This document shows, one piece after another, positions 40,915-55,090 of a DNA stretch of 64,000 nt (its first letter is position 1; each line of letters opens with the position of its first letter). Made by a program: the position numbers and the translations under genes. The notes under the pieces are model-generated. The model had not been told where the DNA came from and did no database searches. It worked only from the letters and a program-made list of their open reading frames with translations. Location of the stretch: the NCBI GenBank assembly GCA_017396465.1, contig JAFQLU010000131.1, forward strand, positions 7,065 to 71,064, written 5' to 3'. The stretch comes from Clostridia bacterium. GTDB lineage: Bacteria > Bacillota > Clostridia > UBA1381 > UBA9506.

Positions 40915-41053
40915 AGGCACACCACCTTTCACAAAAAGCAAATTTCACCGATTTTTCAGCAAGTTATATTCTTGTCATCTTTTTGTGGCTATGGTATGAT
41001 TATAGCATCAGGAACATTTATTGTCAATCCTATTTTATCGTGGAGGGAAACCA

Positions 41054-42397
41054 TTGAAGCACGAAACATTCCATTACGAAAATATAGAAGCCATAAAAGC
41101 AAAATTTAACGAAATCGGAGCATGTCCTCCCGTGGCAGAGAACATTGGCACGCTGTGGGATGAAGTATCCTTGGGCGCACATAGCCTGAAAAACCGTTTT
41201 GTGATTCAGCCCATGGAGGGATGCGACGGCACAAAAGCCGGTGCCCCGGACGAACTGACAAAACGGCGGTATCTGCGGTTTGCGGAAAGCGGCGCAGGCG
41301 TTATCTGGTTTGAAGCGGTTGCTATTGTGCACGAGGGCAGAGCCAATCCGAGACAGCTTTATTTATCATCGGAAACGGCGGAGGAATTTAAAAAGCTGAT
41401 TGCCGAAATCAAGGAAACCGCCATCCAAAAACACGGCTTTGCACCGAAAATCATCATGCAGGCAACCCATTCGGGCAGACAGTCCAGACCGGACGATGCA
41501 CCGAAGCCTGTGATTGCCTATCGGCATGCGCTATACGAGAAAACCCGACCGATTCCCGGGGACGAATGCATCGCTTCAGACGATGCGCTGAAAGCTTTGG
41601 AGGAAAAGTTTGCAGAAGCAACGGTTTTGGCGCAGGAGGTCGGCTTTGACGGCATCGATGTAAAGTGCTGCCACGGATATCTCTTAAACGAACTGCTTTC
41701 GGCATACACACGACCGGGGCTGTATGGCGGTTCCTTTGAAAACCGCACAAGACTATTCCGAAACGGCGTAGACGCCGCATTTTCTGCGGCGAAAGGCGAT
41801 TTTATTGTTACTTCCAGGCTAAATATATATGACGGTTTTCCCTATCCCTTCGGCTTCGGCGTGAAAGAGGGCGAGGGTAACACGCCGGACTTAACGGAAG
41901 GCATGAAACTGGTGGGTGAGCTTTATCAAAAGGGTATGCGGCTTTTAAACATCACCGCAGGAAACCCTTATGTGAACCCCCATGTGAACCGCCCTTACGA
42001 TAGCGGGGGTTACATGCCGGAGGAGCATCCTTTAGAGGGAATTCTTCGCATGAGCAATTGCACAGAAACCGTGCAGAAGGCATATCCCGATATGGTGATT
42101 GTGGGCTCGGCATTTTCCTATCTTCGCCAGTTTGCACCGCACTTTGCGGCAGGCGCAATCGAAAACGGCAATTGCACGCTGGCAGGCTTCGGACGACAAA
42201 GCTTTGCCTATCCGCAGTTTATTGAGGATTTAAAGAAAAACGGAGAAATGAACCCGAAAAAATGCTGTGTTTCCTGCAGCAGCTGTTCCAAAATGATGCG
42301 GATGGGAACGGTGGCTGGATGCATGGTGAAGGATCAGGAAGTATATCTGCCTCTGTATCGTGAGGCGGTGGCAAAGCAGGAAAGGGGGAATGTATGA
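41054..42397 (+). CDS. NADH:flavin oxidoreductase (Old Yellow Enzyme fold) with C-terminal CxxCxxC...C motif
   Basis: NRFVIQPMEG, HSGR, GFDGIDVKCCHGYLLNELLS, YGGSFENR, CVSCSSC...GC; TTG start after GGAGG. Confidence 0.87.
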   Translation: MKHETFHYENIEAIKAKFNEIGACPPVAENIGTLWDEVSLGAHSLKNRFVIQPMEGCDGTKAGAPDELTKRRYLRFAESGAGVIWFEAVAIVHEGRANPRQLYLSSETAEEFKKLIAEIKETAIQKHGFAPKIIMQATHSGRQSRPDDAPKPVIAYRHALYEKTRPIPGDECIASDDALKALEEKFAEATVLAQEVGFDGIDVKCCHGYLLNELLSAYTRPGLYGGSFENRTRLFRNGVDAAFSAAKGDFIVTSRLNIYDGFPYPFGFGVKEGEGNTPDLTEGMKLVGELYQKGMRLLNITAGNPYVNPHVNRPYDSGGYMPEEHPLEGILRMSNCTETVQKAYPDMVIVGSAFSYLRQFAPHFAAGAIENGNCTLAGFGRQSFAYPQFIEDLKKNGEMNPKKCCVSCSSCSKMMRMGTVAGCMVKDQEVYLPLYREAVAKQERGNV

Positions 42398-43152
42398 TGC
42401 AAACGGCAATTGTAACGGGCGTAACCGGCGGCATCGGCAATGAAACGGCAAAACTGTTTTTAGAAAAAGGCTGGCGCGTTGTGGGCGTGGGCAGGTCGGA
42501 CATCTCCAAAGCAGAAAACCTGACGGCGTTCGGTGAAAGATTTCTCTATGTGCAGGGCGATGTTTCGGTAAGCGACACGAAGGACAGAGCCATACAGGCG
42601 GCGCTTGATGGCGGTAACACCATTTCGGCTCTTATAAATGTTGCAGGCGTGGCACCCAAGGTGCGTGCAGACCTTTTGGAGATGACAGAGGAAAGCTACG
42701 ACTATGTGATGGACATCAACGCCAAAGGCACCTTCTTTTTCACCCAGACGGTGGCAAAGGAAATGATAAAAGCGGCGGACAAAGAAAAAAGCTTTAACGG
42801 CGCTATTGTGAATATAGCATCTATATCTTCTTATACCAGCTCCGTAAACCGCGGCGAATACTGCATCTCCAAAGCAGGCATCTCCATGATGACACAACTT
42901 TTTGCAGACCGCTTGGCAGAATATCATATCACCGTAAACGAAATCCGTCCCGGCGTGATTCAAACCAATATGACGGCAGGCGTGACGGAAAAATACGATA
43001 AACTGATAGAAGAGGGAACATTTCCCATTGCCCGTTGGGGCACGCCTTCGGACGTGGCAAAGGCAGTGTTCCTCTTTGCAGACGGAACTTTATCCTACAC
43101 CACGGGCGAAGCGCTTTCCGTAGACGGAGGCTTCTGCATCCGTCGCCTGTAA
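42394..43152 (+). CDS. Short-chain dehydrogenase/reductase
   Basis: TGVTGGIG, NVAG, YCISK, PGVIQT, VDGG. Confidence 0.93.
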   Translation: MMQTAIVTGVTGGIGNETAKLFLEKGWRVVGVGRSDISKAENLTAFGERFLYVQGDVSVSDTKDRAIQAALDGGNTISALINVAGVAPKVRADLLEMTEESYDYVMDINAKGTFFFTQTVAKEMIKAADKEKSFNGAIVNIASISSYTSSVNRGEYCISKAGISMMTQLFADRLAEYHITVNEIRPGVIQTNMTAGVTEKYDKLIEEGTFPIARWGTPSDVAKAVFLFADGTLSYTTGEALSVDGGFCIRRL

Positions 43153-43164
43153 AGGAGGTGTGAT

Positions 43165-45033
43165 ATGGAAATATTCAGCACAGAGGTTTTGATTGTGGGA
43201 AGCGGATGTGCAGGCTTAAACGCCGCAGACACCCTGTTTGATTTGGGGAAAACCGATATTCTTCTGGTAACGGAAGGCATGAACATGGGAACCTCGCGGA
43301 ATACGGGGAGCGACAAGCAGACCTATTATAAGCTTTCTTTAGCTTCGGGGGAGCCGGACTCGGTTTCGGAACTGGCAAAAACCTTCTTTTCCGGCGGCGG
43401 TGTAAACGGCGATACGGCGCTGGTTGATGCGGCGTGCTCTGTGCGCGCATTTATGAAGCTGGTGAATCTGGGTGTTCCCTTTCCCACCAACCGATACGGC
43501 GAGTTTGTGGGATATCAGACGGATCATGACACGAAAAAGCGCGCCACCTCGGCAGGACCGCTGACTTCCGGATATATGACCGAGGCACTGGAAAAATCGG
43601 TGAAACGGAAAAACATCCCCATCAAAGATGAAACAGTTATTTTTAAGATTTTAACGCAAAACGGCGCCGTCATCGGGGCTTTGGGCTATGATAAAAAAGA
43701 GCAGAAAATCGTGCTCTTCCGTTGCCCGAACATCATTCTTGCCACGGGCGGTCATGCCATGATATATGAAAACAGCGTGTACCCCGAAAGCCAGACCGGT
43801 ATGACCGGAATGGCGCTGGAGGCAGGCGCGGAAGGTGCAAATCTTTCTGAGTGGCAGTATGGTATTGCTTCCGTTGACTTTCGGTGGAACCTGTCCGGCA
43901 CCTATCAGCAGGTGATGCCGCGGTACATTTCCGTGGACGAAAAGGGAAAAGAGCATGAGTTTCTGTCGGACTATTTTGAAAAACCCGAGGACGCAGTAAA
44001 CTTCGTGTTCATGAAGGGCTATCAATGGCCTTTTGATTTTGAGAAGGTGAACGGCTCTTCTGTAATAGACCTGATTGTGTATCACGAAACCATGCACAAA
44101 GGGCGAACGGTTTATATGGATTTTACCAAGGAACCGTCGGCGTTAGAGCATGGCTTTGATACTTTGAGTGAGGAAGCATATACTTACCTTAAATCTTCCG
44201 ATGCGCTTCTTAAAACGCCTATTGCGCGGCTTGAGAAAATGAACCCTAAAGCGATAGAATTATATCAAAGTCACGGCATTGATTTAAAAAAGGATTTGCT
44301 GAAAATTTCCGTGTGCGCCCAGCACACCAACGGCGGTCTTGCGGTGGACGAAAACTATGAAACCACGGTATCCGGACTATATGCTGCAGGGGAAGTGGCA
44401 GGAACCTTTGGCGTGTATCGCCCTGGGGGCACAGCGCTGAACGCCACGCAAACGGGAAGCCTTCGGGCAGCAGAGCATATCGCGTTTTCGGTTTCTAAAA
44501 AAACGGTTTCGGACGATGTAATTTTGGATTGTGCGAACAAAGAAGTCGGTAAACTGTTCGGGGAAGCAGAATGGAATGTGGGCGAAGCAATGAAAAAATT
44601 TGCATCCGAAATGAGCCGTGTGGGCGCATTTTTAAGAGATGTTCCCGGCATGAAAAGGCTGAAAGAAATGAGCGAAAGCATGCTGAAAAGCTTTCCGCCG
44701 ATTCCCGCGGGCAAGAAAGCTGTGGCAGGCATCAAGCTGCGGGATATGCTGATAACGCAGATTGCGGTATTAGACGCGATGGTAGCGGCGGCAGAGCATT
44801 TCGGCAGCCGCGGAGGTTCTTTGGTAACGGTTGGAAATCCCCCCATGGACAGCGCAAAACAGATTTTTGCGATGACAGAAAGTCAAAAATCCGCCTGCGA
44901 AAATCAGGTGATATACACGGCGTACCAAAACGGGACGGCAAACAGCAGATTTTGCGACGTTCGCCCCATTCCCGAGGAAAACAACTGGTTTGAAACCGTG
45001 TGGAACGCATATATGAAAAAACGGAATGTATAA
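43165..45033 (+). CDS. FAD-binding protein of SdhA/FrdA/NadB superfamily
   Basis: IVGSGCAGL, LATGG, QHTNGG, GLYAAGE, RPGGTAL, SRG. Confidence 0.85.
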   Translation: MEIFSTEVLIVGSGCAGLNAADTLFDLGKTDILLVTEGMNMGTSRNTGSDKQTYYKLSLASGEPDSVSELAKTFFSGGGVNGDTALVDAACSVRAFMKLVNLGVPFPTNRYGEFVGYQTDHDTKKRATSAGPLTSGYMTEALEKSVKRKNIPIKDETVIFKILTQNGAVIGALGYDKKEQKIVLFRCPNIILATGGHAMIYENSVYPESQTGMTGMALEAGAEGANLSEWQYGIASVDFRWNLSGTYQQVMPRYISVDEKGKEHEFLSDYFEKPEDAVNFVFMKGYQWPFDFEKVNGSSVIDLIVYHETMHKGRTVYMDFTKEPSALEHGFDTLSEEAYTYLKSSDALLKTPIARLEKMNPKAIELYQSHGIDLKKDLLKISVCAQHTNGGLAVDENYETTVSGLYAAGEVAGTFGVYRPGGTALNATQTGSLRAAEHIAFSVSKKTVSDDVILDCANKEVGKLFGEAEWNVGEAMKKFASEMSRVGAFLRDVPGMKRLKEMSESMLKSFPPIPAGKKAVAGIKLRDMLITQIAVLDAMVAAAEHFGSRGGSLVTVGNPPMDSAKQIFAMTESQKSACENQVIYTAYQNGTANSRFCDVRPIPEENNWFETVWNAYMKKRNV

Positions 45034-45047
45034 AACAAAAGGAGAAG

Positions 45048-46070
45048 ATGATTATGGCAAAGAAAATGAAATTAGGTGTGATCGGTTGTGGCGGTATGGC
45101 AACCAATATCCATGTTCCCAGCATTATGGAAATTGAAAACTGCAAGATTGTTGCAGTTTGTGACCTGTACGAAGAAAAGGCAAAGGCGTTGGCGTCCAAA
45201 TATAATATCCCTAAAACGTACGCCTTGCATCACGAAATGATTGAAAAAGAAGAAATGGACGGCGTAGTGATTTTAGTAAACCCCGAACGTACCTACTGGG
45301 TGGCGGATATGTGCCTTAAGGCAGGGCTTCATGTTATGATGGAAAAGCCTGCCGGCATCAACTCCTATCAGGCGCACTCTCTGGAAAGAACGGCAAAGGA
45401 AATGGGCAAAATCGCCGCTGTTGCCATGAACAGAAGACATATCCCGTTGGTAAGAGAAGTGTTAAAGCGCGTAAAAGCGGCAACGGAAATCACGCAGATC
45501 GACAGCCGTTTCATGAAATTTTCCAATATCCACAAGGATTGGCACTACACCAGCGCATATAACTGCGACATCATCCACGCGCTGGATTTGCTCCGTTATG
45601 CGGCAGGCTCCGAGCCGAAAGACGCGGCAACAGTTGTGCAACAGTTCGATTCTCCCGTTGACAACGCATGGACCAGTGTTATCCGCTTTGAAAACGGCAT
45701 CACAGGCACACTTCGTGCAAACTACCGTTGCGCAGGCAGATTCCATGATTTAGAAATTCAGGGTCCCCGTGCAAGTGCGTTTATCAATTTAGGTCTGGGG
45801 GATATTACCTGCAATGCAAAAATTTATTACGGGGATGGAAACTCCATGTACTCTGCGGCTTCTACCGGTGTGGAAGAAACCAGAGTGGAATTCCTGGATG
45901 GTATAGAACTCGCCGGAGGAAGAACGGAATATTCTCACTACTATGGATATAAAGCGGAAAATGTTGACTTTGTCAACTGTGTACTGGAAGGCAAAACTCC
46001 GATTTGCACCATTGAAGATGCGGCAAAATCCATGGATATGGCAGAGCTTCTGCTGGAAAAGAGAATTTAA
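45048..46070 (+). CDS. Gfo/Idh/MocA family oxidoreductase
   Basis: GVIGCGG, HVMMEKP, NRR, DIIHALD; AGGAG RBS. Confidence 0.92.
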   Translation: MIMAKKMKLGVIGCGGMATNIHVPSIMEIENCKIVAVCDLYEEKAKALASKYNIPKTYALHHEMIEKEEMDGVVILVNPERTYWVADMCLKAGLHVMMEKPAGINSYQAHSLERTAKEMGKIAAVAMNRRHIPLVREVLKRVKAATEITQIDSRFMKFSNIHKDWHYTSAYNCDIIHALDLLRYAAGSEPKDAATVVQQFDSPVDNAWTSVIRFENGITGTLRANYRCAGRFHDLEIQGPRASAFINLGLGDITCNAKIYYGDGNSMYSAASTGVEETRVEFLDGIELAGGRTEYSHYYGYKAENVDFVNCVLEGKTPICTIEDAAKSMDMAELLLEKRI

Positions 46071-46105
46071 ACAGCAAAAAATCTGTATAGGAAAAGGGGA
46101 GACGC

Positions 46106-46864
46106 GTGGTGATACAAAAAGGCTTGGTATCTGTAACCTTTCGGAATCTTTCGCCGGAGGAAGTTATAGCGGTAGCAAAAAAAGCAGAGTTTTCCGCCAT
46201 CGAATGGGGCGGAGATGTGCATGTGCCGGCAGGAGATATTGAAAAAGCAAAAGAAGTGCGGAAGCTGACAGAGAGTGCCGGTCTTTCTGTTTCATCATAT
46301 GGCTCTTATTTCCGTGCAGGCGATAACGAAAATGCGAAAGAAGCCTTTGCGCCAATTTTACAAACGGCGGTGGCGTTGGGTGCACCGGTCATTCGCATAT
46401 GGGCAGGCAGTAAATGGTCTTGGAAAGCGGATGAAGCATATAAAAAAAAGGTGGTTTCCGATACGCAGATTGCGTGCGATATAGCAAAGGAATACGGCAT
46501 AGATATTGCCTATGAATATCACGGCTGGTCGCTGACGGACAACCGTTTCTCTGCGCTAGATACGGTGAACAACGTAGACCGAGAAAACATGTATCTGTAC
46601 TGGCAACCGAATTTTACCTTAAGCGAAGAGGAAAACGTGCTTGCCCTTCGGGCGGTTCTGTCATATCTTAAGCATGTGCATTGCTTTTACTGGGACGCCG
46701 ATGAAGCAAAATTTCCGCTGGAAGAGGGCAGAGGCATCTGGACGCGGTTTGCTGAAGTTTTAAAAGCGGACGAAAAGGACCGTGCCGTGATGCTGGAATT
46801 TGTAAAAGATGGAAAAGAAGAGCAGTGCATAGAGGATGCAAAGGTTCTGCTTGATTTATTTTAA
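46106..46864 (+). CDS. Sugar phosphate isomerase/epimerase (AP endonuclease 2 TIM barrel)
   Basis: SVTFR, IEWGGDVH, SSYGSY, IRIWAG, EYH, YWQP, LEF. Confidence 0.85.
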   Translation: MVIQKGLVSVTFRNLSPEEVIAVAKKAEFSAIEWGGDVHVPAGDIEKAKEVRKLTESAGLSVSSYGSYFRAGDNENAKEAFAPILQTAVALGAPVIRIWAGSKWSWKADEAYKKKVVSDTQIACDIAKEYGIDIAYEYHGWSLTDNRFSALDTVNNVDRENMYLYWQPNFTLSEEENVLALRAVLSYLKHVHCFYWDADEAKFPLEEGRGIWTRFAEVLKADEKDRAVMLEFVKDGKEEQCIEDAKVLLDLF

Positions 46865-46886
46865 AATGATTTGAGGCGGTATTCAT

Positions 46887-47696
46887 ATGAAATTTGTGGG
46901 ACATACAATGGCAACGCCAAATCTTCCGGTTTCGGAGGCAATTGCGCTTTTTCGCTCCATCGGGCTGGACGGAATCGAAATCGTGGCGCAGGAGGGTGGC
47001 GCCTTTTCGATCAACGACCCCGAGGAAAAGGTCAAAGCCGTGGTAAAACAGGCAAAGGCTCTGCCTTGCGGCGTGGTTACCTTAACGCCTTATTACTGGG
47101 ATATCAATAACATAGACCCCAAAATCGCGGAAGCAGAAATTGCAGGAATGAAAAAGTCTATTGATTTAGCGGCTTTTATGGGTGCGCAGTTTGTCCGTGC
47201 CTACGGTGGCAAGGAAGAAGCGGGCGGCACACGGGTGGAAAATTATAAAAATGCGGTGGAGGCTTTAAAAGAAATCGGCGCATATGCATCCAAAGCCAAG
47301 GTGACCGTTTTGGTGGAAAACCATCCCGGCACCGTGACCCGAACCGGCGAGGATACCTATCGGCTGATAAACGCCGTTGGTTCGGACAGCGTAAAAGCGC
47401 TGTATGACCCGGCAAACGTGCTGCACGATACCACCGAGGATTGGGAAAAAACCTACGAGGTGCAAAAGGATATCATCGGCTACGTGCATGTCAAGGACTT
47501 TTTTATGGTTGACAACGAGCGAAAAGCCTGCGTGGTGGGCAATGGTATTGTGCCCTGGGATAAGATTATGAAAAAGCTGTCGGGCTACGACGGATTTTTG
47601 TCCTTTGAATATGAAAAACGGTGGTATCCGGACCAGCTTCCCGATGCGGAAGTGGGCGTGAAAATGTGCGCGGATTATATCCGGTCTCTGATATAG
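46887..47696 (+). CDS. Sugar phosphate isomerase/epimerase (AP endonuclease 2 TIM barrel)
   Basis: GLDGIE, ENH, DPAN, HVKD, SFE metal-binding motifs. Confidence 0.88.
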   Translation: MKFVGHTMATPNLPVSEAIALFRSIGLDGIEIVAQEGGAFSINDPEEKVKAVVKQAKALPCGVVTLTPYYWDINNIDPKIAEAEIAGMKKSIDLAAFMGAQFVRAYGGKEEAGGTRVENYKNAVEALKEIGAYASKAKVTVLVENHPGTVTRTGEDTYRLINAVGSDSVKALYDPANVLHDTTEDWEKTYEVQKDIIGYVHVKDFFMVDNERKACVVGNGIVPWDKIMKKLSGYDGFLSFEYEKRWYPDQLPDAEVGVKMCADYIRSLI

Positions 47697-47804: not shown

Positions 47805-47833
47805 TTGACAAAATGCGGTTTTTTTGCTATAAT
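47805..47833 (+). promoter_or_regulatory. Consensus sigma-A promoter of the aspS-gat operon
   Basis: TTGACA-17bp-TATAAT with extended -10 TG. Confidence 0.85.
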
Positions 47834-47839
47834 AATTTG

Positions 47840-48072
47840 CGGAGACTCGGCTTTTGTGGAAAGTCTGTCAGGGAGAATGCGTCACCGACTGAAAGCGCGT
47901 TTGAGATGAGTAGTAAGCTTGGGAACACTCCGATTGCTTTTTAAAACAAAATAAAAAAGAGGATGCGCGCTTTTTGCGTATCAATGCGGGTGGCACCGCG
48001 GGTAATGTTTATTTTAAGTTTACTCGTCCCGGGAATATTATGTTTCGTAATATTCTTGGGACTTATTTTTTT
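47840..48072 (+). ncRNA. T-box riboswitch leader, probable Asn (AAC) specifier
   Basis: Stem I base cggag/ctccg, AGGGAG and GACTGAAAG boxes, gggAACa at 47921-47927, T-box AATGCGGGTGGCACCGCG at 47983-48000, terminator 48026-48072. Confidence 0.88.
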
Positions 48073-48097
48073 GGGATATTTATAGGAGGGATACAAT

Positions 48098-50176
48098 ATG
48101 TACAGAACACATTTTTGTAACGACATCCGTGACGCACATATCGGGCAGACCGTTCAGCTTGCCGGCTGGGTGGATGTTATCCGTGACCACGGTGGCGTTA
48201 TCTTTGTGGACATCCGCGACTATACGGGTGTGACACAGGTGGTTATCCACAATGAGGCACTTTTGGAAAATGTGAACCGTGAAACCGTTATTTCCGTCAG
48301 CGGTATTGTGGAAAAGAGAGACCCGGAAACCGTAAACGAAAAAATTGAAACAGGTAATGTTGAGCTGGTTGCAGATTCTTTGGACGTATTAGGCAAAAGC
48401 AAGAATATGCTCCCCTTTGAAGTGAGAGCATCCAGAACCAGTAAAGACGAGGTTCGTTTGAAATACCGTTATCTGGACCTTCGTAATCCCAAAAATCACG
48501 ATAATCTGGTGATGCGTTCCAAAATCATCCGTCACCTGAGAAATAAAATGGAAGAAAAGAACTTCCTGGATATGCAGACACCGATTTTGACCGCATCTTC
48601 TCCCGAAGGCGCAAGAGACTTTCTGGTGCCCAGCCGTAAGCATCCCGGTAAGTTCTATGCGCTGCCTCAGGCACCCCAGCAGTTCAAACAGCTTCTGATG
48701 GTGTCGGGGTTTGACAGATACTTCCAGGTAGCACCTTGCTTCCGTGACGAGGATGCCCGTGCAGACCGTTCTCCCGGCGAATTCTATCAGCTGGACTTTG
48801 AAATGGCGTTTGCAACCCAGGAAGAAGTATTAGAGGTTTGTGAAGACGTAATCTACGATACTTTTAAAACCTTCTCCGATAAAAAAGTAACAGAAAAACC
48901 TTTCCGCCGTATCACATACGCGGAATCTATGATGAAATACGGTTCCGATAAGCCGGACCTTCGAAACCCCCTTATCATCTGTGACTTAACCGACTTTTTC
49001 GCAGGGGTGGACTTCCCGGCGTTTAAGGGCAGACCGGTTCGCGGTATCGTGGCAGACTGTCAGGGCAAATCCAAGAAATTCTTTGAGGATTCCTTAAAGT
49101 TTGCAACCTCTGCCGAGGTTGGTCTGGGCGGCTTAGGCTATATCACCTTAAAAGAGGGTGTGTTCGCAGGTCCTATTGCGAAATTCCTGTCCGACGCACA
49201 GAAAGAAGAAATCACGGCGTTAACCGGTGTGAAAGAGGGCGAAACCCTGTTCTTCATCTGTGACGATAAAAAGAACGACACCGAGAAAAAAGCAGGTCAT
49301 ATCCGTACCTGGCTGGCAAAACCCGAACAGTTGGATTTAATCCGCGATGATGCCTTTGAATTCTGCTTTGTTGTGGACTTCCCCATGTTTGAGGACGATG
49401 AAGAAACCGGTGAAACCATCTTCACCCACAACCCCTTCTCCATGCCGCAGGGCGGAATGGAAGCGCTTCTTACCAAGAACCCCAACGATGTGCTGGCTTA
49501 TCAGTACGACCTGGTATGTAACGGTATTGAGCTTGCATCCGGTGCGGTTCGTAACCACGATATCGACATCATGAAAAAAGCATTTGAAATCGCAGGCTAT
49601 GATGAAGAAGAATTAAAGAGCCGTTTCAATGCGTTATATACCGCATTCCAGTACGGTGCACCTCCCCATGCCGGCATGGCACCGGGTATTGACCGTATGG
49701 TAATGCTTTTGACCGACGAAGAAAAAATCTTGGATGTTATCGCATTCCCCTTAAACGGTAACGCACAGGATCTGCTCCTTGGTGCACCCAGTGAGGTTAC
49801 CAATCAGCAGCTGGAGGATGTTCACCTGTTAGGCAGCGGCAGTGCATTGGCACAGCGCGCGCAGGCAACCGGCGGTGCATCCAAAGCGGCAAAGGGCAAG
49901 CGTTCCACCTTCTCTAACGCACAGCAGCTGAACCAGATTTCTTTAACCGATGAGGAAGAAGCTGTGGTAGAGGGTATCTTCAAGGCAATGAGCGAAAGCG
50001 AAGAAAAGCTCAAAGCAGTAGATACAGAGAATGTGGAAGAAATGGTACACGTTATGCCGATGACCAACGTTCTGCGTGAAGACGTGCGCAAGCAGCCGTT
50101 TACCAGAGATAGCCTTTTGGAAGGCGCTCCTGAACGCAGTGAGGACAGCTGGCAGGTACCCAGACTTGTAAAGTGA
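48098..50176 (+). CDS. aspS: Aspartyl-tRNA synthetase (probably non-discriminating) fused in frame to a C-terminal GatC domain
   Basis: YRTH.C, RDHGG, RYLDLR, PEGARDF, LPQAPQQFKQ, CFRDED, GAPPHAG, VIAFP; Gly/Ala/Lys linker; then LNQISL...VDTENVE...NVLREDV...LLEGAPE....WQVPRLV. Confidence 0.92.
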   Translation: MYRTHFCNDIRDAHIGQTVQLAGWVDVIRDHGGVIFVDIRDYTGVTQVVIHNEALLENVNRETVISVSGIVEKRDPETVNEKIETGNVELVADSLDVLGKSKNMLPFEVRASRTSKDEVRLKYRYLDLRNPKNHDNLVMRSKIIRHLRNKMEEKNFLDMQTPILTASSPEGARDFLVPSRKHPGKFYALPQAPQQFKQLLMVSGFDRYFQVAPCFRDEDARADRSPGEFYQLDFEMAFATQEEVLEVCEDVIYDTFKTFSDKKVTEKPFRRITYAESMMKYGSDKPDLRNPLIICDLTDFFAGVDFPAFKGRPVRGIVADCQGKSKKFFEDSLKFATSAEVGLGGLGYITLKEGVFAGPIAKFLSDAQKEEITALTGVKEGETLFFICDDKKNDTEKKAGHIRTWLAKPEQLDLIRDDAFEFCFVVDFPMFEDDEETGETIFTHNPFSMPQGGMEALLTKNPNDVLAYQYDLVCNGIELASGAVRNHDIDIMKKAFEIAGYDEEELKSRFNALYTAFQYGAPPHAGMAPGIDRMVMLLTDEEKILDVIAFPLNGNAQDLLLGAPSEVTNQQLEDVHLLGSGSALAQRAQATGGASKAAKGKRSTFSNAQQLNQISLTDEEEAVVEGIFKAMSESEEKLKAVDTENVEEMVHVMPMTNVLREDVRKQPFTRDSLLEGAPERSEDSWQVPRLVK

Positions 50177-50186
50177 GGTGTGTGAA

Positions 50187-51371
50187 ATGAAATATTATGC
50201 TGAAAAGCTGAGTGATAAAGGAACTATCGCGGTGGAAGATACCATTCTGATGAAGGATGTTGCATCTTGCGCAGGTTCCCGTATTCTGGAAGGGTTCAAG
50301 TCTCTCTTCAGCGCAGAAGCGGTTGTCCGCCTGCAGGAAAAGGGCTATGAAATCGCAGGGAAAACCCCCGTAGGCGAATTCGGTTTAGACTTAGTCGGCG
50401 AATTTTCCTACGGCGCTGAGCAGGAAGGTACCCTTTCCGGCGCGGCGGCATCTTTGGTAGCGCAGGGTGAAGCAGAAGCGGCTCTGGGCGTTGACATGAA
50501 CGGTGCAACCAGAAGAGCGGCGGCACTTGCCGGCGTGGACTTCTTAAAACCCACCTACGGAACTGTTTCCCGTTACGGCATCATTTCCTGTGCCGCATCC
50601 GGCGAGCAGGTAGGTGTATACAGTAAAGACGCAGCAGGCGTTGCTAAAATCATGGGTGTGATTGCAGGCCACGATGATAAAGACGGCACAAGCCTGCCGG
50701 AAGCATCTTATGACTATGTAACCGATAAAGCTATCTCCGGCAAAAAGGTTGCCATCATCAGCGATTTGCTTAAAAAAGCAGACGATGATGTGAAAGAAAA
50801 GGTAAATGCCTATGCTGATGCACTTCGCGCAAACGGTGCTAAAGTGGAAGAAATCTCCTGCGACCTGTTTGAAGTGGCAAACACCGCTTGGCAGATTTTA
50901 ATGTGTGCGGAAACCTGCAACAACGTTTCCCGTTACGACGGCGTGAAATACGGTCACCGCGCAGCTTCTTATAAAAATATTGACGAGCTGTATGTAAATT
51001 CCAGAACAGAGGGCTTTAACTTCTTAACAAAAGCCGTGATTCTGTACGGTTCGGATGTGTTATCCAAAAACAGATATAAAGATTGCTACGATAAGTCTTT
51101 GCGCGTTCGCCGCGTGGTGGCAGAGGGCATGAAAAAGCTTTTTGAAAGCTATGATGCCGTGCTGACTCCCGCCTGCGCAAAATCGGCTTACGAAGCATAC
51201 GATATTCATGATGCATTCGGCAAAGTGTTCTCCGAGAGCGTGTTCACCGCAGCTGCAAACTTAATCGGTACACCGGCGCTCGTTTCCGGCGGCGTTCAGC
51301 TTCTGGGTAAGCACTTTGATGAAAGCACACTTTTAAGCCTTGCATATCGTGTGGAAAGGAAGGGTGAATGA
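50187..51371 (+). CDS. gatA: GatA-like amidase-signature subunit, N-terminally truncated and lacking the catalytic triad
   Basis: Position between gatC domain and gatB; GSRILEGF, KPTYGTVSRYG, SRYDGVKYGHR, SRTEGF retained; KDN->EDT, GGSSGG->GTLSGA, GSDTGGSIR->GVDMNGATR. Confidence 0.85.
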   Translation: MKYYAEKLSDKGTIAVEDTILMKDVASCAGSRILEGFKSLFSAEAVVRLQEKGYEIAGKTPVGEFGLDLVGEFSYGAEQEGTLSGAAASLVAQGEAEAALGVDMNGATRRAAALAGVDFLKPTYGTVSRYGIISCAASGEQVGVYSKDAAGVAKIMGVIAGHDDKDGTSLPEASYDYVTDKAISGKKVAIISDLLKKADDDVKEKVNAYADALRANGAKVEEISCDLFEVANTAWQILMCAETCNNVSRYDGVKYGHRAASYKNIDELYVNSRTEGFNFLTKAVILYGSDVLSKNRYKDCYDKSLRVRRVVAEGMKKLFESYDAVLTPACAKSAYEAYDIHDAFGKVFSESVFTAAANLIGTPALVSGGVQLLGKHFDESTLLSLAYRVERKGE

Positions 51372-51373
51372 TT

Positions 51374-52792
51374 ATGAAATACGAACTCGTCATCGGTCTG
51401 GAAACCCATGTGGAACTGGAAACCAACTCCAAGATTTTCTGTTCCTGCGGCGGTCACTCTGCCGCAAAAGAACCCAATGACTGCGTATGCCCTGCCTGCA
51501 GCGGTATGCCGGGGATGCTTCCCGTTATGAACAAGCATGTGGTGGAGCTTGCCGTAACAGCAGGCCTGATGCTGAACTGTAACATCAATCGCTACACCAC
51601 CTTTGATAAGAAAAACTATTATTATCCCGATCTGCCCTGTGCATATCAGATTACCCAGCTGAACCACCCCATCTGTACCGACGGTGTGGTTACCATTAAA
51701 ACATCCGAGGGTGCAAGAGATATCCGCATCAAGCAGATTCATATGGAAGAGGATGCAGGTAAGCTGGTGCACGGCGGAAGCTTCTCTTTTGTGGACTTTA
51801 ACCGTACCAGCGTCCCGCTGATTGAAATCGTAACACAGCCCGACTTCCGCAGTGCAGAAGAGGTTGTAACGTATCTGAATAAATTAAAATCCATGTTCCG
51901 CTCCGGCGGCATTTCGGAATGTGAAGAAGGCGCAATGCGTTGCGACGTAAACATTTCCGTTCGTCCCGAGGGAAGTGAAGAATTCGGCGTTCGTACCGAA
52001 ATCAAGAACATGAGCTCCTTTGACGCTATTGACCGCGCGATTCGCTACGAGGCACAGCGCCATATGGATGCGTTAGAATACGAAATCGAAGAACTGGTGC
52101 AGGAAACCAGAAGATTCGACGATGTCAGCGGTAAAACCTTTGCAATGCGTAACAAGGAAACCGAAGCGGACTACCGTTATTTCCCCGATGCAAACCTGAT
52201 GCCTATCGTAATTGACGATGCTTGGCTGGAAAAAATCAAAGCAAACAAGCCCGTTGCAGTAGACGAAAAGGCGGAAGAATACAGAGAAGCAGGCATTTCC
52301 GAAAAAGAAATCGACATGCTTCTGGCAAGCCACAAAATCAGCAAGCTTTTAGACGATGTGGTAGCAAAAGGCTGCAACGCAAAAGACACCGCAACCTGGA
52401 TATTAACCGACTGTGCAGGTATCCTGCGTAAAGAAGGTAAAACCCTGGGTGAGCTGGAGGTTACGGCGGACAGCTTAGCGGCTTTGATACAGATGGTAGA
52501 CGGCGGCAAAATCAACCGCAGTGCGGCAAGAAAAGTGCTGATTGCCATGATTATTGACGGCGCAGATCCCGTGGCATACTGTAAGGAAAACGGTCTGGAC
52601 AGACAGGTGGATTCTTCCATGATTGAAGGCATCATTGATGCGGTTATCGCCGGAAATCCCCAGGCTGTGGAAGACTATAAAAACGGTAAAACCAAGGCTG
52701 TTCAGGCTCTGTTCGGTGCTTGTATGAAACAGCTTAAAGGTGCAGGTGACCCTGCGGTTATCAAAGAAATTTTAGAACAGAAATTAAAGTAA
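51374..52792 (+). CDS. gatB: Asp-tRNA(Asn)/Glu-tRNA(Gln) amidotransferase subunit B
   Basis: IGLETHVEL, KNYYYPDLP, HMEEDAGK, PLIEIVT, MRCDVNIS, EIKN, QETR, DYRYFP, YqeY-like tail. Confidence 0.96.
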   Translation: MKYELVIGLETHVELETNSKIFCSCGGHSAAKEPNDCVCPACSGMPGMLPVMNKHVVELAVTAGLMLNCNINRYTTFDKKNYYYPDLPCAYQITQLNHPICTDGVVTIKTSEGARDIRIKQIHMEEDAGKLVHGGSFSFVDFNRTSVPLIEIVTQPDFRSAEEVVTYLNKLKSMFRSGGISECEEGAMRCDVNISVRPEGSEEFGVRTEIKNMSSFDAIDRAIRYEAQRHMDALEYEIEELVQETRRFDDVSGKTFAMRNKETEADYRYFPDANLMPIVIDDAWLEKIKANKPVAVDEKAEEYREAGISEKEIDMLLASHKISKLLDDVVAKGCNAKDTATWILTDCAGILRKEGKTLGELEVTADSLAALIQMVDGGKINRSAARKVLIAMIIDGADPVAYCKENGLDRQVDSSMIEGIIDAVIAGNPQAVEDYKNGKTKAVQALFGACMKQLKGAGDPAVIKEILEQKLK

Positions 52793-52801
52793 GAAAAAAC
52801 A

Positions 52802-52835
52802 AAACAGCGAAGGTATAGCGTTACCTTCGCTGTTT
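52802..52835. terminator. Hairpin after gatB with weak U-tail on the plus strand
   Basis: aaacagcgaaggta-tagcgt-taccttcgctgttt; followed by gatta, preceded by an A-rich run. Confidence 0.6.
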
Positions 52836-52853
52836 GATTATGGATGAGGTAAC

Positions 52854-53918
52854 ATGAAAAAAATTCTGCTGATTATGGTGGGCGGCACTATCTGTACCGC
52901 CCTGAACGAAAAAGGAACGCTTTCGGTTTCTGCGGATGCCGGCGCGCTGATAACAGAAAATTTCTATGCGTCCGATTCCCCTTATGCCGGAAGTGTTACA
53001 TTTGATATAACAGAAAACCTCGGCATCTTAAGCGAAAATATGACGGTGGACAACTGGAACCGTATGATAGCTTTGTACCGGGATTCCATCGGAAAAGACA
53101 GCTATAACGGCGTGATTTTTGCCCACGGAACAGATACGCTTGCTTATTCTGCCGCTTTGTTTGCACAGCTTTTGAGTGACACCGATATTCCTGTGTTCTT
53201 CGTGTCCAGCAACGCGCGGCTCACATCGCCCCGTGCCAACGGAAATGAGAACTTCCGTGCGGCGGTGGAATGTATCGCAAGAGGGATTGTGCCGAATGTA
53301 TATGCGGTATACCGGAATATTTCGGACGTAAGAATGTATTTGCATCCGGCATCGAGACTGATGCAGTGCGGAAATTATTCGGAGGATTTTTATAGTTTTG
53401 GCGCGATGGATATAACAAATATTAATGATGAAAATAGCGCGGAATATTTTGAAATGCTTCGGAAAAGCTATCCGCCTGAAAAACGCAAACCGGGCTTTGA
53501 TTTCAGCAAACTGCCGCCACTTTGCGACCATGTTCTGATGCTGATGCCCTATGTGGGACTGCGGTATGATGTGATAGACTACAGCAAGTTTTCTGCGGTA
53601 CTTCACGGCACCTACCATTCCGGAACGGCTTGTGCCGAGGCGGAAAATGAAAGACATATGCTTTTGTCCATGCTGGATGCCTGCGGAAAAGAGAAGGCAG
53701 ATGTGTATTTTGCTCCGTCGAAGCCGGAGGGGGAAATTTATGATACGGTACGGGTGATTGCATCCCACGGTGAGGGAAACGAAAAAATTCGGTTTCTTTA
53801 CGGTTATACCAATGAAACGGCGTATGCAAAGCTTCTTCTGGCGTATTCTGTGATGAGTGAGGAAGAAAGAGAAGAATTTATCCGTACAGAACGGAATTTT
53901 GAAAAAATTGATGCGTAA
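52854..53918 (+). CDS. Asparaginase/glutaminase-family protein (AnsA/GatD-like fold), atypical
   Basis: MVGGTIC, LSENMT, HGTDTLAYSA, TYHSGT; GAGGT RBS. Confidence 0.85.
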   Translation: MKKILLIMVGGTICTALNEKGTLSVSADAGALITENFYASDSPYAGSVTFDITENLGILSENMTVDNWNRMIALYRDSIGKDSYNGVIFAHGTDTLAYSAALFAQLLSDTDIPVFFVSSNARLTSPRANGNENFRAAVECIARGIVPNVYAVYRNISDVRMYLHPASRLMQCGNYSEDFYSFGAMDITNINDENSAEYFEMLRKSYPPEKRKPGFDFSKLPPLCDHVLMLMPYVGLRYDVIDYSKFSAVLHGTYHSGTACAEAENERHMLLSMLDACGKEKADVYFAPSKPEGEIYDTVRVIASHGEGNEKIRFLYGYTNETAYAKLLLAYSVMSEEEREEFIRTERNFEKIDA

Positions 53919-53932
53919 AAAGGATGATAATA

Positions 53933-55090
53933 ATGACAGTAAAACTGTATGACAAAGATGCATATATCAAAGAATTTACCGCCACAGTTCTGTCCTGCGA
54001 GGAGACTGATGGCGCATATCAGGTCGTGTTGGACGAAACGGCGTTTTTCCCCGAAGGAGGCGGTCAGCCGGCAGATACCGGAACGCTGGGTGAGGTAAAT
54101 GTTAAAGATGTGCAGGAGGAAAAGGGCATCATCGTTCATATAACCGACGGCGCTTTGCCTGTGGGGGAAAAGGTTTCAGGAAAGCTCAATTGGGACATAC
54201 GTTATTCACGCATGCAGAGTCACGCCGGAGAGCATATCGTTGCAGGAACGGTGCATACCATGTTTGGCTACGATAATGTGGGCTTTCATTTGAACGACAG
54301 CTTTATGACCGTGGATGTGAGCGGTCCTTTAACCAAAGAGGATATCGGCAGAATCGAGCTTGCGGCAAACAAAGCCATTTATCAGAACAACGCCATCACC
54401 GTAACATTCCCCTCAACGGAGGAAGTGGCGGCGTTAGAGTATCGCAGTAAGCTGGACATCACCGAGGGGCTGCGCATTGTGACCATCGAAAATGTGGATT
54501 GCTGTGCTTGTTGCGCACCGCATCCCAAAAGCACGGGAGAAATTGGCGCGATAAAAATTTTAGACTTCTATCCCAACAAAGGCGGAACCCGAATGGAAAT
54601 GGTGGCAGGTTTGAATGCATATCTGGACTATAAAAAACTGCACGAAGCCAATAAAACATTGATGAAGCTGCTCTCTGCCGCAAGAGATGAAGTGGCGGAA
54701 ACCGTAGAAAAGTTAAACGAGCAACTGCAACAACTCAGAGGCGAAAATCAAAGACTTTCCAAGGAACTGGCACTTTCCGCCATGGCACCGGTTGCGGTAG
54801 GTGATTCTGCCTATGTGATTTCGGAAGGCTTATCTTATGACGAGTTGCGCCATTGCTCCAATAGCTTAACGGAGCAGGGCTTCAAAAACTGCATTCTTTT
54901 GTCTCGCTCGGAGGAATCAAGCTATATCTATGTGGTAAGCAGTAGTGAAAACGAGGCAAAGGAAAAGGTTTCCGCGCTGAACGAAGCATTTTCCGGCAAA
55001 GGCGGCGGAAAACCCAATTACGCCCAGGGGAAAATCACGGTAGAAGATGTGGATGCCGCGAAAAGCTTATTGGAAAAATTGTTGCAATAA
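53933..55090 (+). CDS. AlaX-type alanyl-tRNA editing protein with C-terminal DHHA1/C-Ala domain
   Basis: FFPEGGGQPADTG, HAGEH (HxxxH), CCAPH (CxxxH), GKGGGKPNYAQG; no aminoacylation domain. Confidence 0.9.
   Translation: MTVKLYDKDAYIKEFTATVLSCEETDGAYQVVLDETAFFPEGGGQPADTGTLGEVNVKDVQEEKGIIVHITDGALPVGEKVSGKLNWDIRYSRMQSHAGEHIVAGTVHTMFGYDNVGFHLNDSFMTVDVSGPLTKEDIGRIELAANKAIYQNNAITVTFPSTEEVAALEYRSKLDITEGLRIVTIENVDCCACCAPHPKSTGEIGAIKILDFYPNKGGTRMEMVAGLNAYLDYKKLHEANKTLMKLLSAARDEVAETVEKLNEQLQQLRGENQRLSKELALSAMAPVAVGDSAYVISEGLSYDELRHCSNSLTEQGFKNCILLSRSEESSYIYVVSSSENEAKEKVSALNEAFSGKGGGKPNYAQGKITVEDVDAAKSLLEKLLQ

Follow-up and report, generated by a model that had tools for sequence, protein, structure and literature searches.

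Can a bacterial tRNA-dependent amidotransferase still furnish Asn-tRNA(Asn) when its glutaminase subunit has lost the catalytic triad? This question is raised by an operon in a 64,000-nucleotide stretch of a Clostridia genome (assembly GCA_017396465.1, contig JAFQLU010000131.1; the whole stretch is referred to here as the window). In the usual teaching, GatCAB consists of a glutaminase and a kinase that are obligately paired and connected by a tunnel, and the U1-A72 pair of tRNA(Asn) is the bacterial identity element for amidation. At 47840..55090 on the plus strand, an earlier note made from the letters alone had described a T-box leader, an aspartyl-tRNA synthetase (AspRS) gene fused to gatC in one open reading frame, a short gatA without its triad, a complete gatB, an asparaginase-fold gene and an AlaX gene, and all six elements lie there as described. 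The operon is conserved and carried by many gut Clostridia, and we regard it as a variant of GatCAB and the Asn-transamidosome: probably an Asn-specific transamidosome fed by free ammonia, with a catalytically dead GatA as scaffold, an intact GatB and a tethered AspRS-GatC, a reading to which, on comparative sequence data, we give a probability of about 0.6.

Comparisons were made over the best 80 of 424 matching stretches in GTDB (the related loci), over 114 other genomes of the order at a completeness of at least 90%, of which 20 carry the triad-less gatA (gatA*, encoding the 394-aa protein GatA*; aa, amino acids), and over 50 genomes chosen from the 79 in which the loci lie. This locus-derived set comprises all 25 genomes with an adjacent asparaginase-like gene together with 25 others with long flanks, and with the 20 near-complete carriers it gives 70 carriers. 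The source genome of the window is 54.6% complete, so that genes absent from it weigh little. Ratios of nonsynonymous to synonymous substitution (dN/dS) are rough medians, and for gatA* 77 of the 80 pairs were unsaturated.

GatA* is a conserved pseudoenzyme

The gene gatA* (50187..51371, plus strand) encodes a pseudo-glutaminase that, compared with solved GatA structures, carries E17, L83 and A107 at the triad positions of Lys, cis-Ser and Ser, has V284 and S351 in place of the Gln-binding Arg and Asp, is shorter by about 60 residues at the N terminus, and scores 266 bits against TIGR00132 (GatA), for which the equivalog cut-off is 481. The losses extend to its relatives, for which the Lys and nucleophile positions were counted in 201 aligned rows and the cis-Ser and Gln-binding positions in 121: the triad Lys is lost in all 201 (Asp in 198, Glu in 3), the cis-Ser position is Leu, Ile or Val in 121/121, the nucleophile is Ala in 129, Ser in 66, Thr in 4 and Gly in 2, the Thr preceding it is mostly Met, and the Gln-binding residues are replaced in every row, by Val, Ser or Trp.

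GatA* is dead, as the earlier note had it, yet conserved. Its structural model (pLDDT 89.5) superimposes on S. aureus GatA (2df4_A) with a TM score of 0.90, so that an amidase-signature fold closest to GatA is encoded where gatA belongs, between the gatC and gatB segments. R129, E140 and R249 are invariant in the 121 rows, the open frames measure 393-394 aa in 120/120 clusters among the matches listed, gatA* and gatB follow the fusion in 80/80 loci, and a median dN/dS of about 0.11 points to purifying selection. This recurrence also disposes of the possibility that the fusion was peculiar to a single assembly. GatA* is thus a conserved pseudoenzyme, and it was probably kept as a scaffold, possibly with a remodelled ammonia entrance. 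The same residue counts bear on the alternative that GatA* is not inert at all and performs new chemistry, or donates an amide, by way of D17/D18, E64, D68, E72 and R109-R110. These positions are invariant or nearly so across the 201 rows and a third of the rows (66) still have Ser as nucleophile, but that position is evidently free to vary, being Ala in most of them, whereas Lys and cis-Ser are always lost and the Gln-binding residues replaced; we know of no amidase-signature enzyme that works without its catalytic residues, and we consider such chemistry highly improbable.

The tethered synthetase and dependence on the operon

The fusion gene aspS::gatC (48098..50176, plus strand) encodes 692 aa in which a bacterial-type AspRS (residues about 1-578, with a GAD domain and the motif RDHGG) is followed by a linker rich in Gly, Ala, Ser and Lys and by a GatC domain (residues 604-692; 49907..50173, plus strand). 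Pfam places the OB, catalytic, GAD and GatC domains (the last PF02686, residues 616-686) in this one frame, and the GatC domain passes TIGR00135 with 58 bits against 47.1. Both domains share a single frame at 79 of 80 loci, the remaining one being cut by a contig end, and at least 120 of the fusion homologues listed contain both, so that the synthetase is indeed covalently tied to the amidotransferase; dN/dS is 0.045 for aspS and about 0.07 for the GatC domain. RDHGG occurs in 62/62 AspRS N-termini bearing the motif, and its His, which we take to be the marker of a non-discriminating bacterial AspRS in the anticodon-binding motif, is joined in the fusion by a fitting genomic context. The layout as such already has a name in NCBIfam: NF009460 (PRK12820, bifunctional AspRS/GatC) has the same domain order and matches residues 5-665, at a score too low for membership (456 bits against an equivalog cut-off of 1379).

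The expectation that such a fusion always accompanies a dead gatA failed in both directions. At L091 and L092 another AspRS-GatC fusion, with a different linker and 40% AspRS identity, stands beside an intact 488-aa GatA, and at L083 and L085 a dead GatA occurs with a free, unfused gatC. In a quick GatB tree (28 rows, midpoint-rooted, with long branches), on which we rely solely for this grouping, all dead-GatA loci fall together (SH-aLRT 100), and the unfused pair branches next to the fused clade as its sister, which suggests that GatA may have lost its activity first and that fusion came afterwards. The operons of the unfused pair are divergent (about 49% identity), retain a full-length 3-10 turn in GatB and are natural intermediates. 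As for the fusion with a live GatA, its loci L091:938-5929 and L092:1875-6866 are near-identical in genomes of two families (G078 and G004), its GatA and GatB also occur in G053, and the gene upstream of the fusion in L092 resembles an ammonium transporter by eye.

Upstream of the fusion, the leader (47840..48072, plus strand) is by its sequence an Asn T-box. Its match to RF00230 lies below the gathering score (35.3 bits against 93; E 2.8e-6), and an Rfam scan at the gathering level gave no match for it, but the parts of a T-box are present and conserved in relatives: a stem I with the specifier codon AAC (Asn, 47924..47926), an antiterminator of the UGGN type (47988..47996) whose UGGC bulge pairs with G73-CCA, and an intrinsic terminator (48026..48072) with a 17-bp stem and a U-tail, all on the plus strand. 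The assignment follows from conservation over the 65 leaders of the window and the related loci, since the specifier is AAC in all 58 in which stem I could be located, followed by a purine and preceded by a varying base (G, C or A), and the GGGUGGCACCGCG antiterminator (UGGC) is kept in 60 of the 65; G73 was present in every tRNA-Asn sequence inspected. An operon of Clostridium acetobutylicum likewise supplies an additional AspRS and GatCAB under a T-box; its genes are said to be unfused and its GatA catalytically normal. That operon is described as an extra, T-box-controlled aspS-gatCAB for tRNA-dependent Asn synthesis (Saad et al. 2012, as given in PMC4206432).

If the operon makes Asn-tRNA(Asn), some carriers might be expected to have no other route. 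The source genome yielded a single amidase and a single gatB, together with GlnRS and an additional AspRS of archaeal type (G000:C8:9725-11047, outside the window; above the cut-off of the NCBIfam aspartate--tRNA(Asn) ligase), and we found no asnS, asnA, asnB or second gatA or gatB, absences that carry little weight at its completeness. The archaeal type of second AspRS also occurs in G081, and the other carriers checked have a bacterial AspRS of 593-604 aa. Of the 20 near-complete carriers, a full-length gatA is present in 16 (two such proteins were inspected and have the triad), and neither AsnRS nor a normal gatA was detected in G081 (96% complete), G107 (98%) and G082 (92%, with 7% contamination). 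Among the 50 locus-derived genomes, 34 likewise have neither AsnRS nor a second gatA, and incompleteness does not account for these gaps, GlnRS having been found in 47 of these 50 genomes. For 37 of 70 carriers, therefore, no route to Asn-tRNA(Asn) other than the operon could be detected, and the five of these that were checked all have a single gatB and a second AspRS.

The distribution of other enzymes suggests that the operon is Asn-specific. GlnRS is missing in 15 of the 16 near-complete carriers with a normal gatA and present in all four without, so that the normal GatCAB would be retained for Gln-tRNA and the operon for Asn only. Among genomes with AsnRS, the ammonia-dependent asparagine synthetase AsnA occurs in 1 of 11 carriers as against 8 of 11 non-carriers, as expected if the operon replaces it. 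The raw exclusion of AsnA (0/20 against 8/22) was discounted in favour of this narrower comparison because AsnA is reported only together with AsnRS (PMC4206432). A possible decaying AsnRS gene was seen in G104 (C10:49822-51198), where an asnS match with one internal TGA lies on the same contig as the operon.

These counts also bear on two ways of doing without the preferred reading. The first is that the operon is decaying, non-functional or an assembly artefact, for which one could cite its patchy spread (20 of 114 genomes of the order) and a gatB split into two frames at one locus (L051:2744-4201, an assembly error or a pseudogene). This is largely refuted and close to negligible, given the constant length of the 120 listed GatA* clusters, the 120 listed two-domain fusion homologues, dN/dS values of 0.05-0.11, the conserved T-box and the 37 genomes with no other detectable route. 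The second is that a live glutaminase is borrowed in trans, either by a normal GatA that takes the place of GatA* or by a different glutamine amidotransferase, for instance AsnB, that provides ammonia. The normal gatA of the 16 near-complete carriers and the full-length AsnB-family genes in two of five genomes checked (G107 and G149) would permit this, but a second gatA is missing in 40 of the 50 locus-derived genomes and in G081 and G107, no full-length AsnB was found in G081 or G118, and the conservation of gatA* would be left unexplained, which makes borrowing very unlikely.

GatB and the 1-72 base pair of tRNA(Asn)

The gene gatB (51368..52792, plus strand; 474 aa) is complete, scoring 500 bits against a TIGR00133 cut-off of 315, keeping the metal ligands H14, E127 and E153, and showing a dN/dS of 0.06. 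It has, however, given up two features of its normal bacterial counterparts. C91 replaces the conserved Lys of PDxPKAYQ, a residue present in the three solved structures shown; the position is Cys in 83/83 rows of the fused clade and Asn and Ala in the two unfused loci, being replaced in 85/85 GatB rows next to a dead GatA and kept in 4/4 next to a live one. Moreover, the 3-10 turn (residues 182-190) is two residues short in 83/83 fused-clade rows, where bacterial GatB (S. aureus 183-186) has it in full, as do the other six rows. This turn is reported to read U1-A72, and its deletion to abolish the preference for that pair (PMC2811023).

Because a known reader of U1-A72 is shortened, the first pair of tRNA(Asn) was examined with a full-length pattern over 80 genomes, of which 38 gave a match. 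Of the 23 genomes that lack a normal gatA, 14 had G1-C72, against 0 of the 15 that possess one. AsnRS is also missing in 13 of these 14 genomes (G142 is the one that has it), a count to be read with the provisos that metagenome-assembled genomes (MAGs) frequently lack tRNA genes or have them misbinned and that the 13 are partly close kin; four sequence types occur. In an earlier, overlapping search of 40 genomes, U1-A72 was found in the non-carriers with a complete gene, one copy cut by a locus end excepted. For comparison, Table 2 of PMC4206432 gives U1-A72 in 186/186 and 98/98 (together 284/284) genera with GatCAB and without AsnRS, and a normal bacterial GatCAB is reported to handle G1-C72 tRNA(Asn) 100-fold worse (PMC1635274).

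Taken with the shortened turn, these data make it likely that GatB no longer verifies the U1-A72 pair; the shift of tRNA(Asn) to G1-C72 in some genomes for which the operon is the sole route would thereby be accounted for. The G1-C72 pattern is also independent, if indirect, evidence of a working complex with a relaxed check of the tRNA. Archaeal GatCAB offers a precedent, its GatB being one to three residues shorter at the 3-10 turn and the enzyme taking G1-C72 tRNA(Asn) and serving Asn only (PMC2811023; PMC2330236); its GatA, however, is an active amidase, while the operon GatB is of bacterial type. Because of this type, and because the turn is complete in the unfused sister loci, the loss looks convergent with that in archaea. 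The bacterial GatCAB and Asn-transamidosome structures (P. aeruginosa 4WJ3, T. thermophilus 3KFU, S. aureus 2DF4) share with the operon their subunits, folds and GatB catalytic residues, whereas the operon stands apart in a GatA without triad, Gln-binding residues and N-terminal segment, in the attachment of GatC to AspRS, and in a GatB without the PDxPK lysine and two residues of the turn that reads U1-A72.

Nitrogen supply and neighbouring features

In the mechanism that we favour, the AAC T-box would activate the operon in response to uncharged tRNA(Asn), by the known T-box mechanism, and AspRS would form Asp-tRNA(Asn), with tRNA(Asp) presumably rejected through the D-loop nucleotide U20A, which the 77-nt tRNA(Asp) of the source genome has, judged by its length. 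The tethered GatC, in keeping with its known function, would clamp GatA* to GatB and hold the mischarged tRNA near GatB, and GatB would phosphorylate and amidate it by its known chemistry, with cytoplasmic ammonia as donor and GatA* serving as scaffold and perhaps forming a remodelled entrance for ammonia. AsnA and the ammonia-only NAD synthetases also use free ammonia without a glutaminase, and AsnA and the operon are close to mutually exclusive among AsnRS-bearing genomes; the operon differs from both in keeping a pseudoenzyme subunit and in making its product on tRNA. A related amidotransferase, yeast GatFAB, is reported to transamidate in vitro with 20 mM NH4Cl (PMC4027206).

The earlier note had proposed free ammonium or the neighbouring asparaginase as nitrogen source. 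A donor other than GatA is supported, and the asparaginase is not a fixed member of the operon. The gene in the window (52854..53918, plus strand) encodes a 354-aa protein with the asparaginase fold, of type I and of an unusual subfamily. It keeps T12, S60-E61, T93-D94 and Y296, and in the subfamily T12 and D94 occur in 55/55 rows with Thr or Ser at 93, so that the class 1 fold, the nucleophilic Thr and the Thr-Asp pair are all present; H164, Y254 and H255 are new invariant residues. The catalytic Lys (Lys162 in EcAII) is missing in 55/55 rows, Q171 aligning to the invariant Lys of ordinary asparaginases and GatD, and since this Lys belongs to the five residues described as crucial for class 1 asparaginases (PMC8256714), the activity of the protein is uncertain. 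Members of this Lys-free subfamily also occur away from the operon (L098-L113 and L122-L146), including in two non-carriers (G105 and G108), and a search of the ESM Atlas returned generic asparaginase clusters only.

Whether this protein is a dedicated donor docked on GatA* or GatB, a bacterial counterpart of GatD that channels ammonia from Gln or Asn, can be judged from its likeness to GatD and from its distribution. Archaeal GatDE links an asparaginase-fold protein to a GatB-family kinase, GatD is the best phmmer match in the PDB, and the LSENM and HGTDT motifs are common to both; the new invariant residues might also fit a docking role. On the other hand, Foldseek ranks ordinary type I asparaginases above GatD, the score against the GatD cut-off is 69 against 324 bits, the N-terminal extension of GatD is absent (354 against 435-438 aa, the match beginning after GatD residue 92), and GatA* still fills the role of partner to GatB. 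At 25 of 80 loci the gene is a neighbour of the operon, in four arrangements (13 times downstream on the same strand, 10 times convergent and hence outside T-box control, and twice upstream), and it also stands upstream in the unfused locus L083; this proximity speaks for a link, and its absence from the neighbourhood of the other 55 loci against constant adjacency. Genome-wide, protein and Pfam searches agree on an asparaginase-family gene in 16/16 unselected carriers with the operon as sole route, as against 11/19 carriers with a normal gatA, 1/10 with AsnRS and 2/22 non-carriers, although the sole-route genome G143 has only an ordinary asparaginase.

The asparaginase thus appears tied to the pathway, but Asn salvage explains the pattern equally well as a docked donor, because free Asn is unusable without AsnRS until it is hydrolysed. 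With no fixed membership, no GatD extension and no catalytic Lys, the protein more probably contributes by way of the ammonia pool of the cell than as a docked donor, and we consider the latter unlikely; the enzyme would rather turn Asn or Gln into Asp or Glu and ammonia in the cytoplasm without being a fixed subunit. A normal gatA or AsnRS is present in 4 of 25 genomes with an adjacent asparaginase-like gene and in 12 of 25 without (p 0.03, between kin that are not independent). The stricter idea that the adjacent gene replaces the normal gatA was weakened, since that gatA occurs in 3 of the 25 genomes that have the adjacent gene as against 7 of the 25 that do not. When the neighbourhood test was reversed and started from the asparaginase in metagenome contigs, it gave four loci only, none of them close.

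Several observations weigh against an Asn-transamidosome fed by free ammonia. The Lys of PDxPKAYQ is S. aureus K88, which presumably has a place in the ammonia tunnel, although we found no paper confirming that role. U1-A72 is retained in 9 of the 23 genomes without a normal gatA, and G120 has one tRNA(Asn) gene of each type; moreover, tRNA(Asn) was detected in 38 of 80 genomes only, and that of the source genome, not being assembled, was not found. The co-occurrence counts are drawn from related MAGs, which overstates their independence, and no completeness is given for the 50 locus-derived genomes. An Amt transporter was found in none of the five genomes without another route that were checked, so that the supply of ammonia would depend on diffusion or internal deamination, and the asparaginase-family gene in all 16 dependents may mean that free ammonia alone is not enough. 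A fuller version of the reading, in which a self-contained tethered Asn-transamidosome has both inputs rewired, receiving ammonia through the pseudo-GatA with the Lys-free asparaginase as a convergent GatD-like feeder, and dropping the U1-A72 rule so that tRNA(Asn) could become G1-C72, is held tentatively, at somewhat short of even odds.

The earlier note knew of no description of this combination. Among the openly accessible papers searched, we found none on a natural triad-less GatA, on its combination with this AspRS-GatC fusion or on G1-C72 tRNA(Asn) in bacteria without AsnRS (the U1-A72 count may be affected by Table S1 of PMC4206432); the fusion itself, as noted above, belongs to a layout that already has a name. 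If this fuller reading is right, we have found no earlier description of a natural tRNA-dependent amidotransferase whose glutaminase subunit does not work, and this one would be the first. A natural and widespread glutaminase-less version, apparently enough for an essential step of translation, would serve as an in vivo test of free-ammonia feeding, and the operon would allow us to ask what GatA does beyond catalysis, how the tunnel handles ammonia from solvent, and whether a tether to the synthetase can stand in for a proofreading element. Annotation would also be corrected, as these genomes would otherwise be called Gln-dependent Asn prototrophs, or gatA* a generic amidase.

The remaining features of the region are of less consequence for the argument. 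The AlaX-like editing protein encoded at 53924..55090 (plus strand; 388 aa) has tRNA_SAD and DHHA1 domains with the motifs HxxxH and CxxxH; a gene of this kind neighbours the operon at 18 of 80 loci, in most cases without the asparaginase-like gene, and both are found in L002, L052, L082 and L084. Between gatB and the asparaginase-like gene there is a terminator-like 14-bp hairpin (52802..52835) with the better U-tail on the minus strand. The leader is preceded by a sigma70/sigmaA-type promoter (47805..47833, plus strand; TTGACA-17-TG-TATAAT), which matches the consensus at 12 of 12 positions and ranks first among 11 sites in the region. Further upstream, a cluster on the same strand (41021-47696) looks like one for sugar-acid catabolism with no relation to the operon: by eye it contains flavin oxidoreductase-like, short-chain dehydrogenase-like, FAD-dependent and Gfo/Idh/MocA-like genes, and its last gene encodes a xylose-isomerase-like TIM barrel by Pfam.

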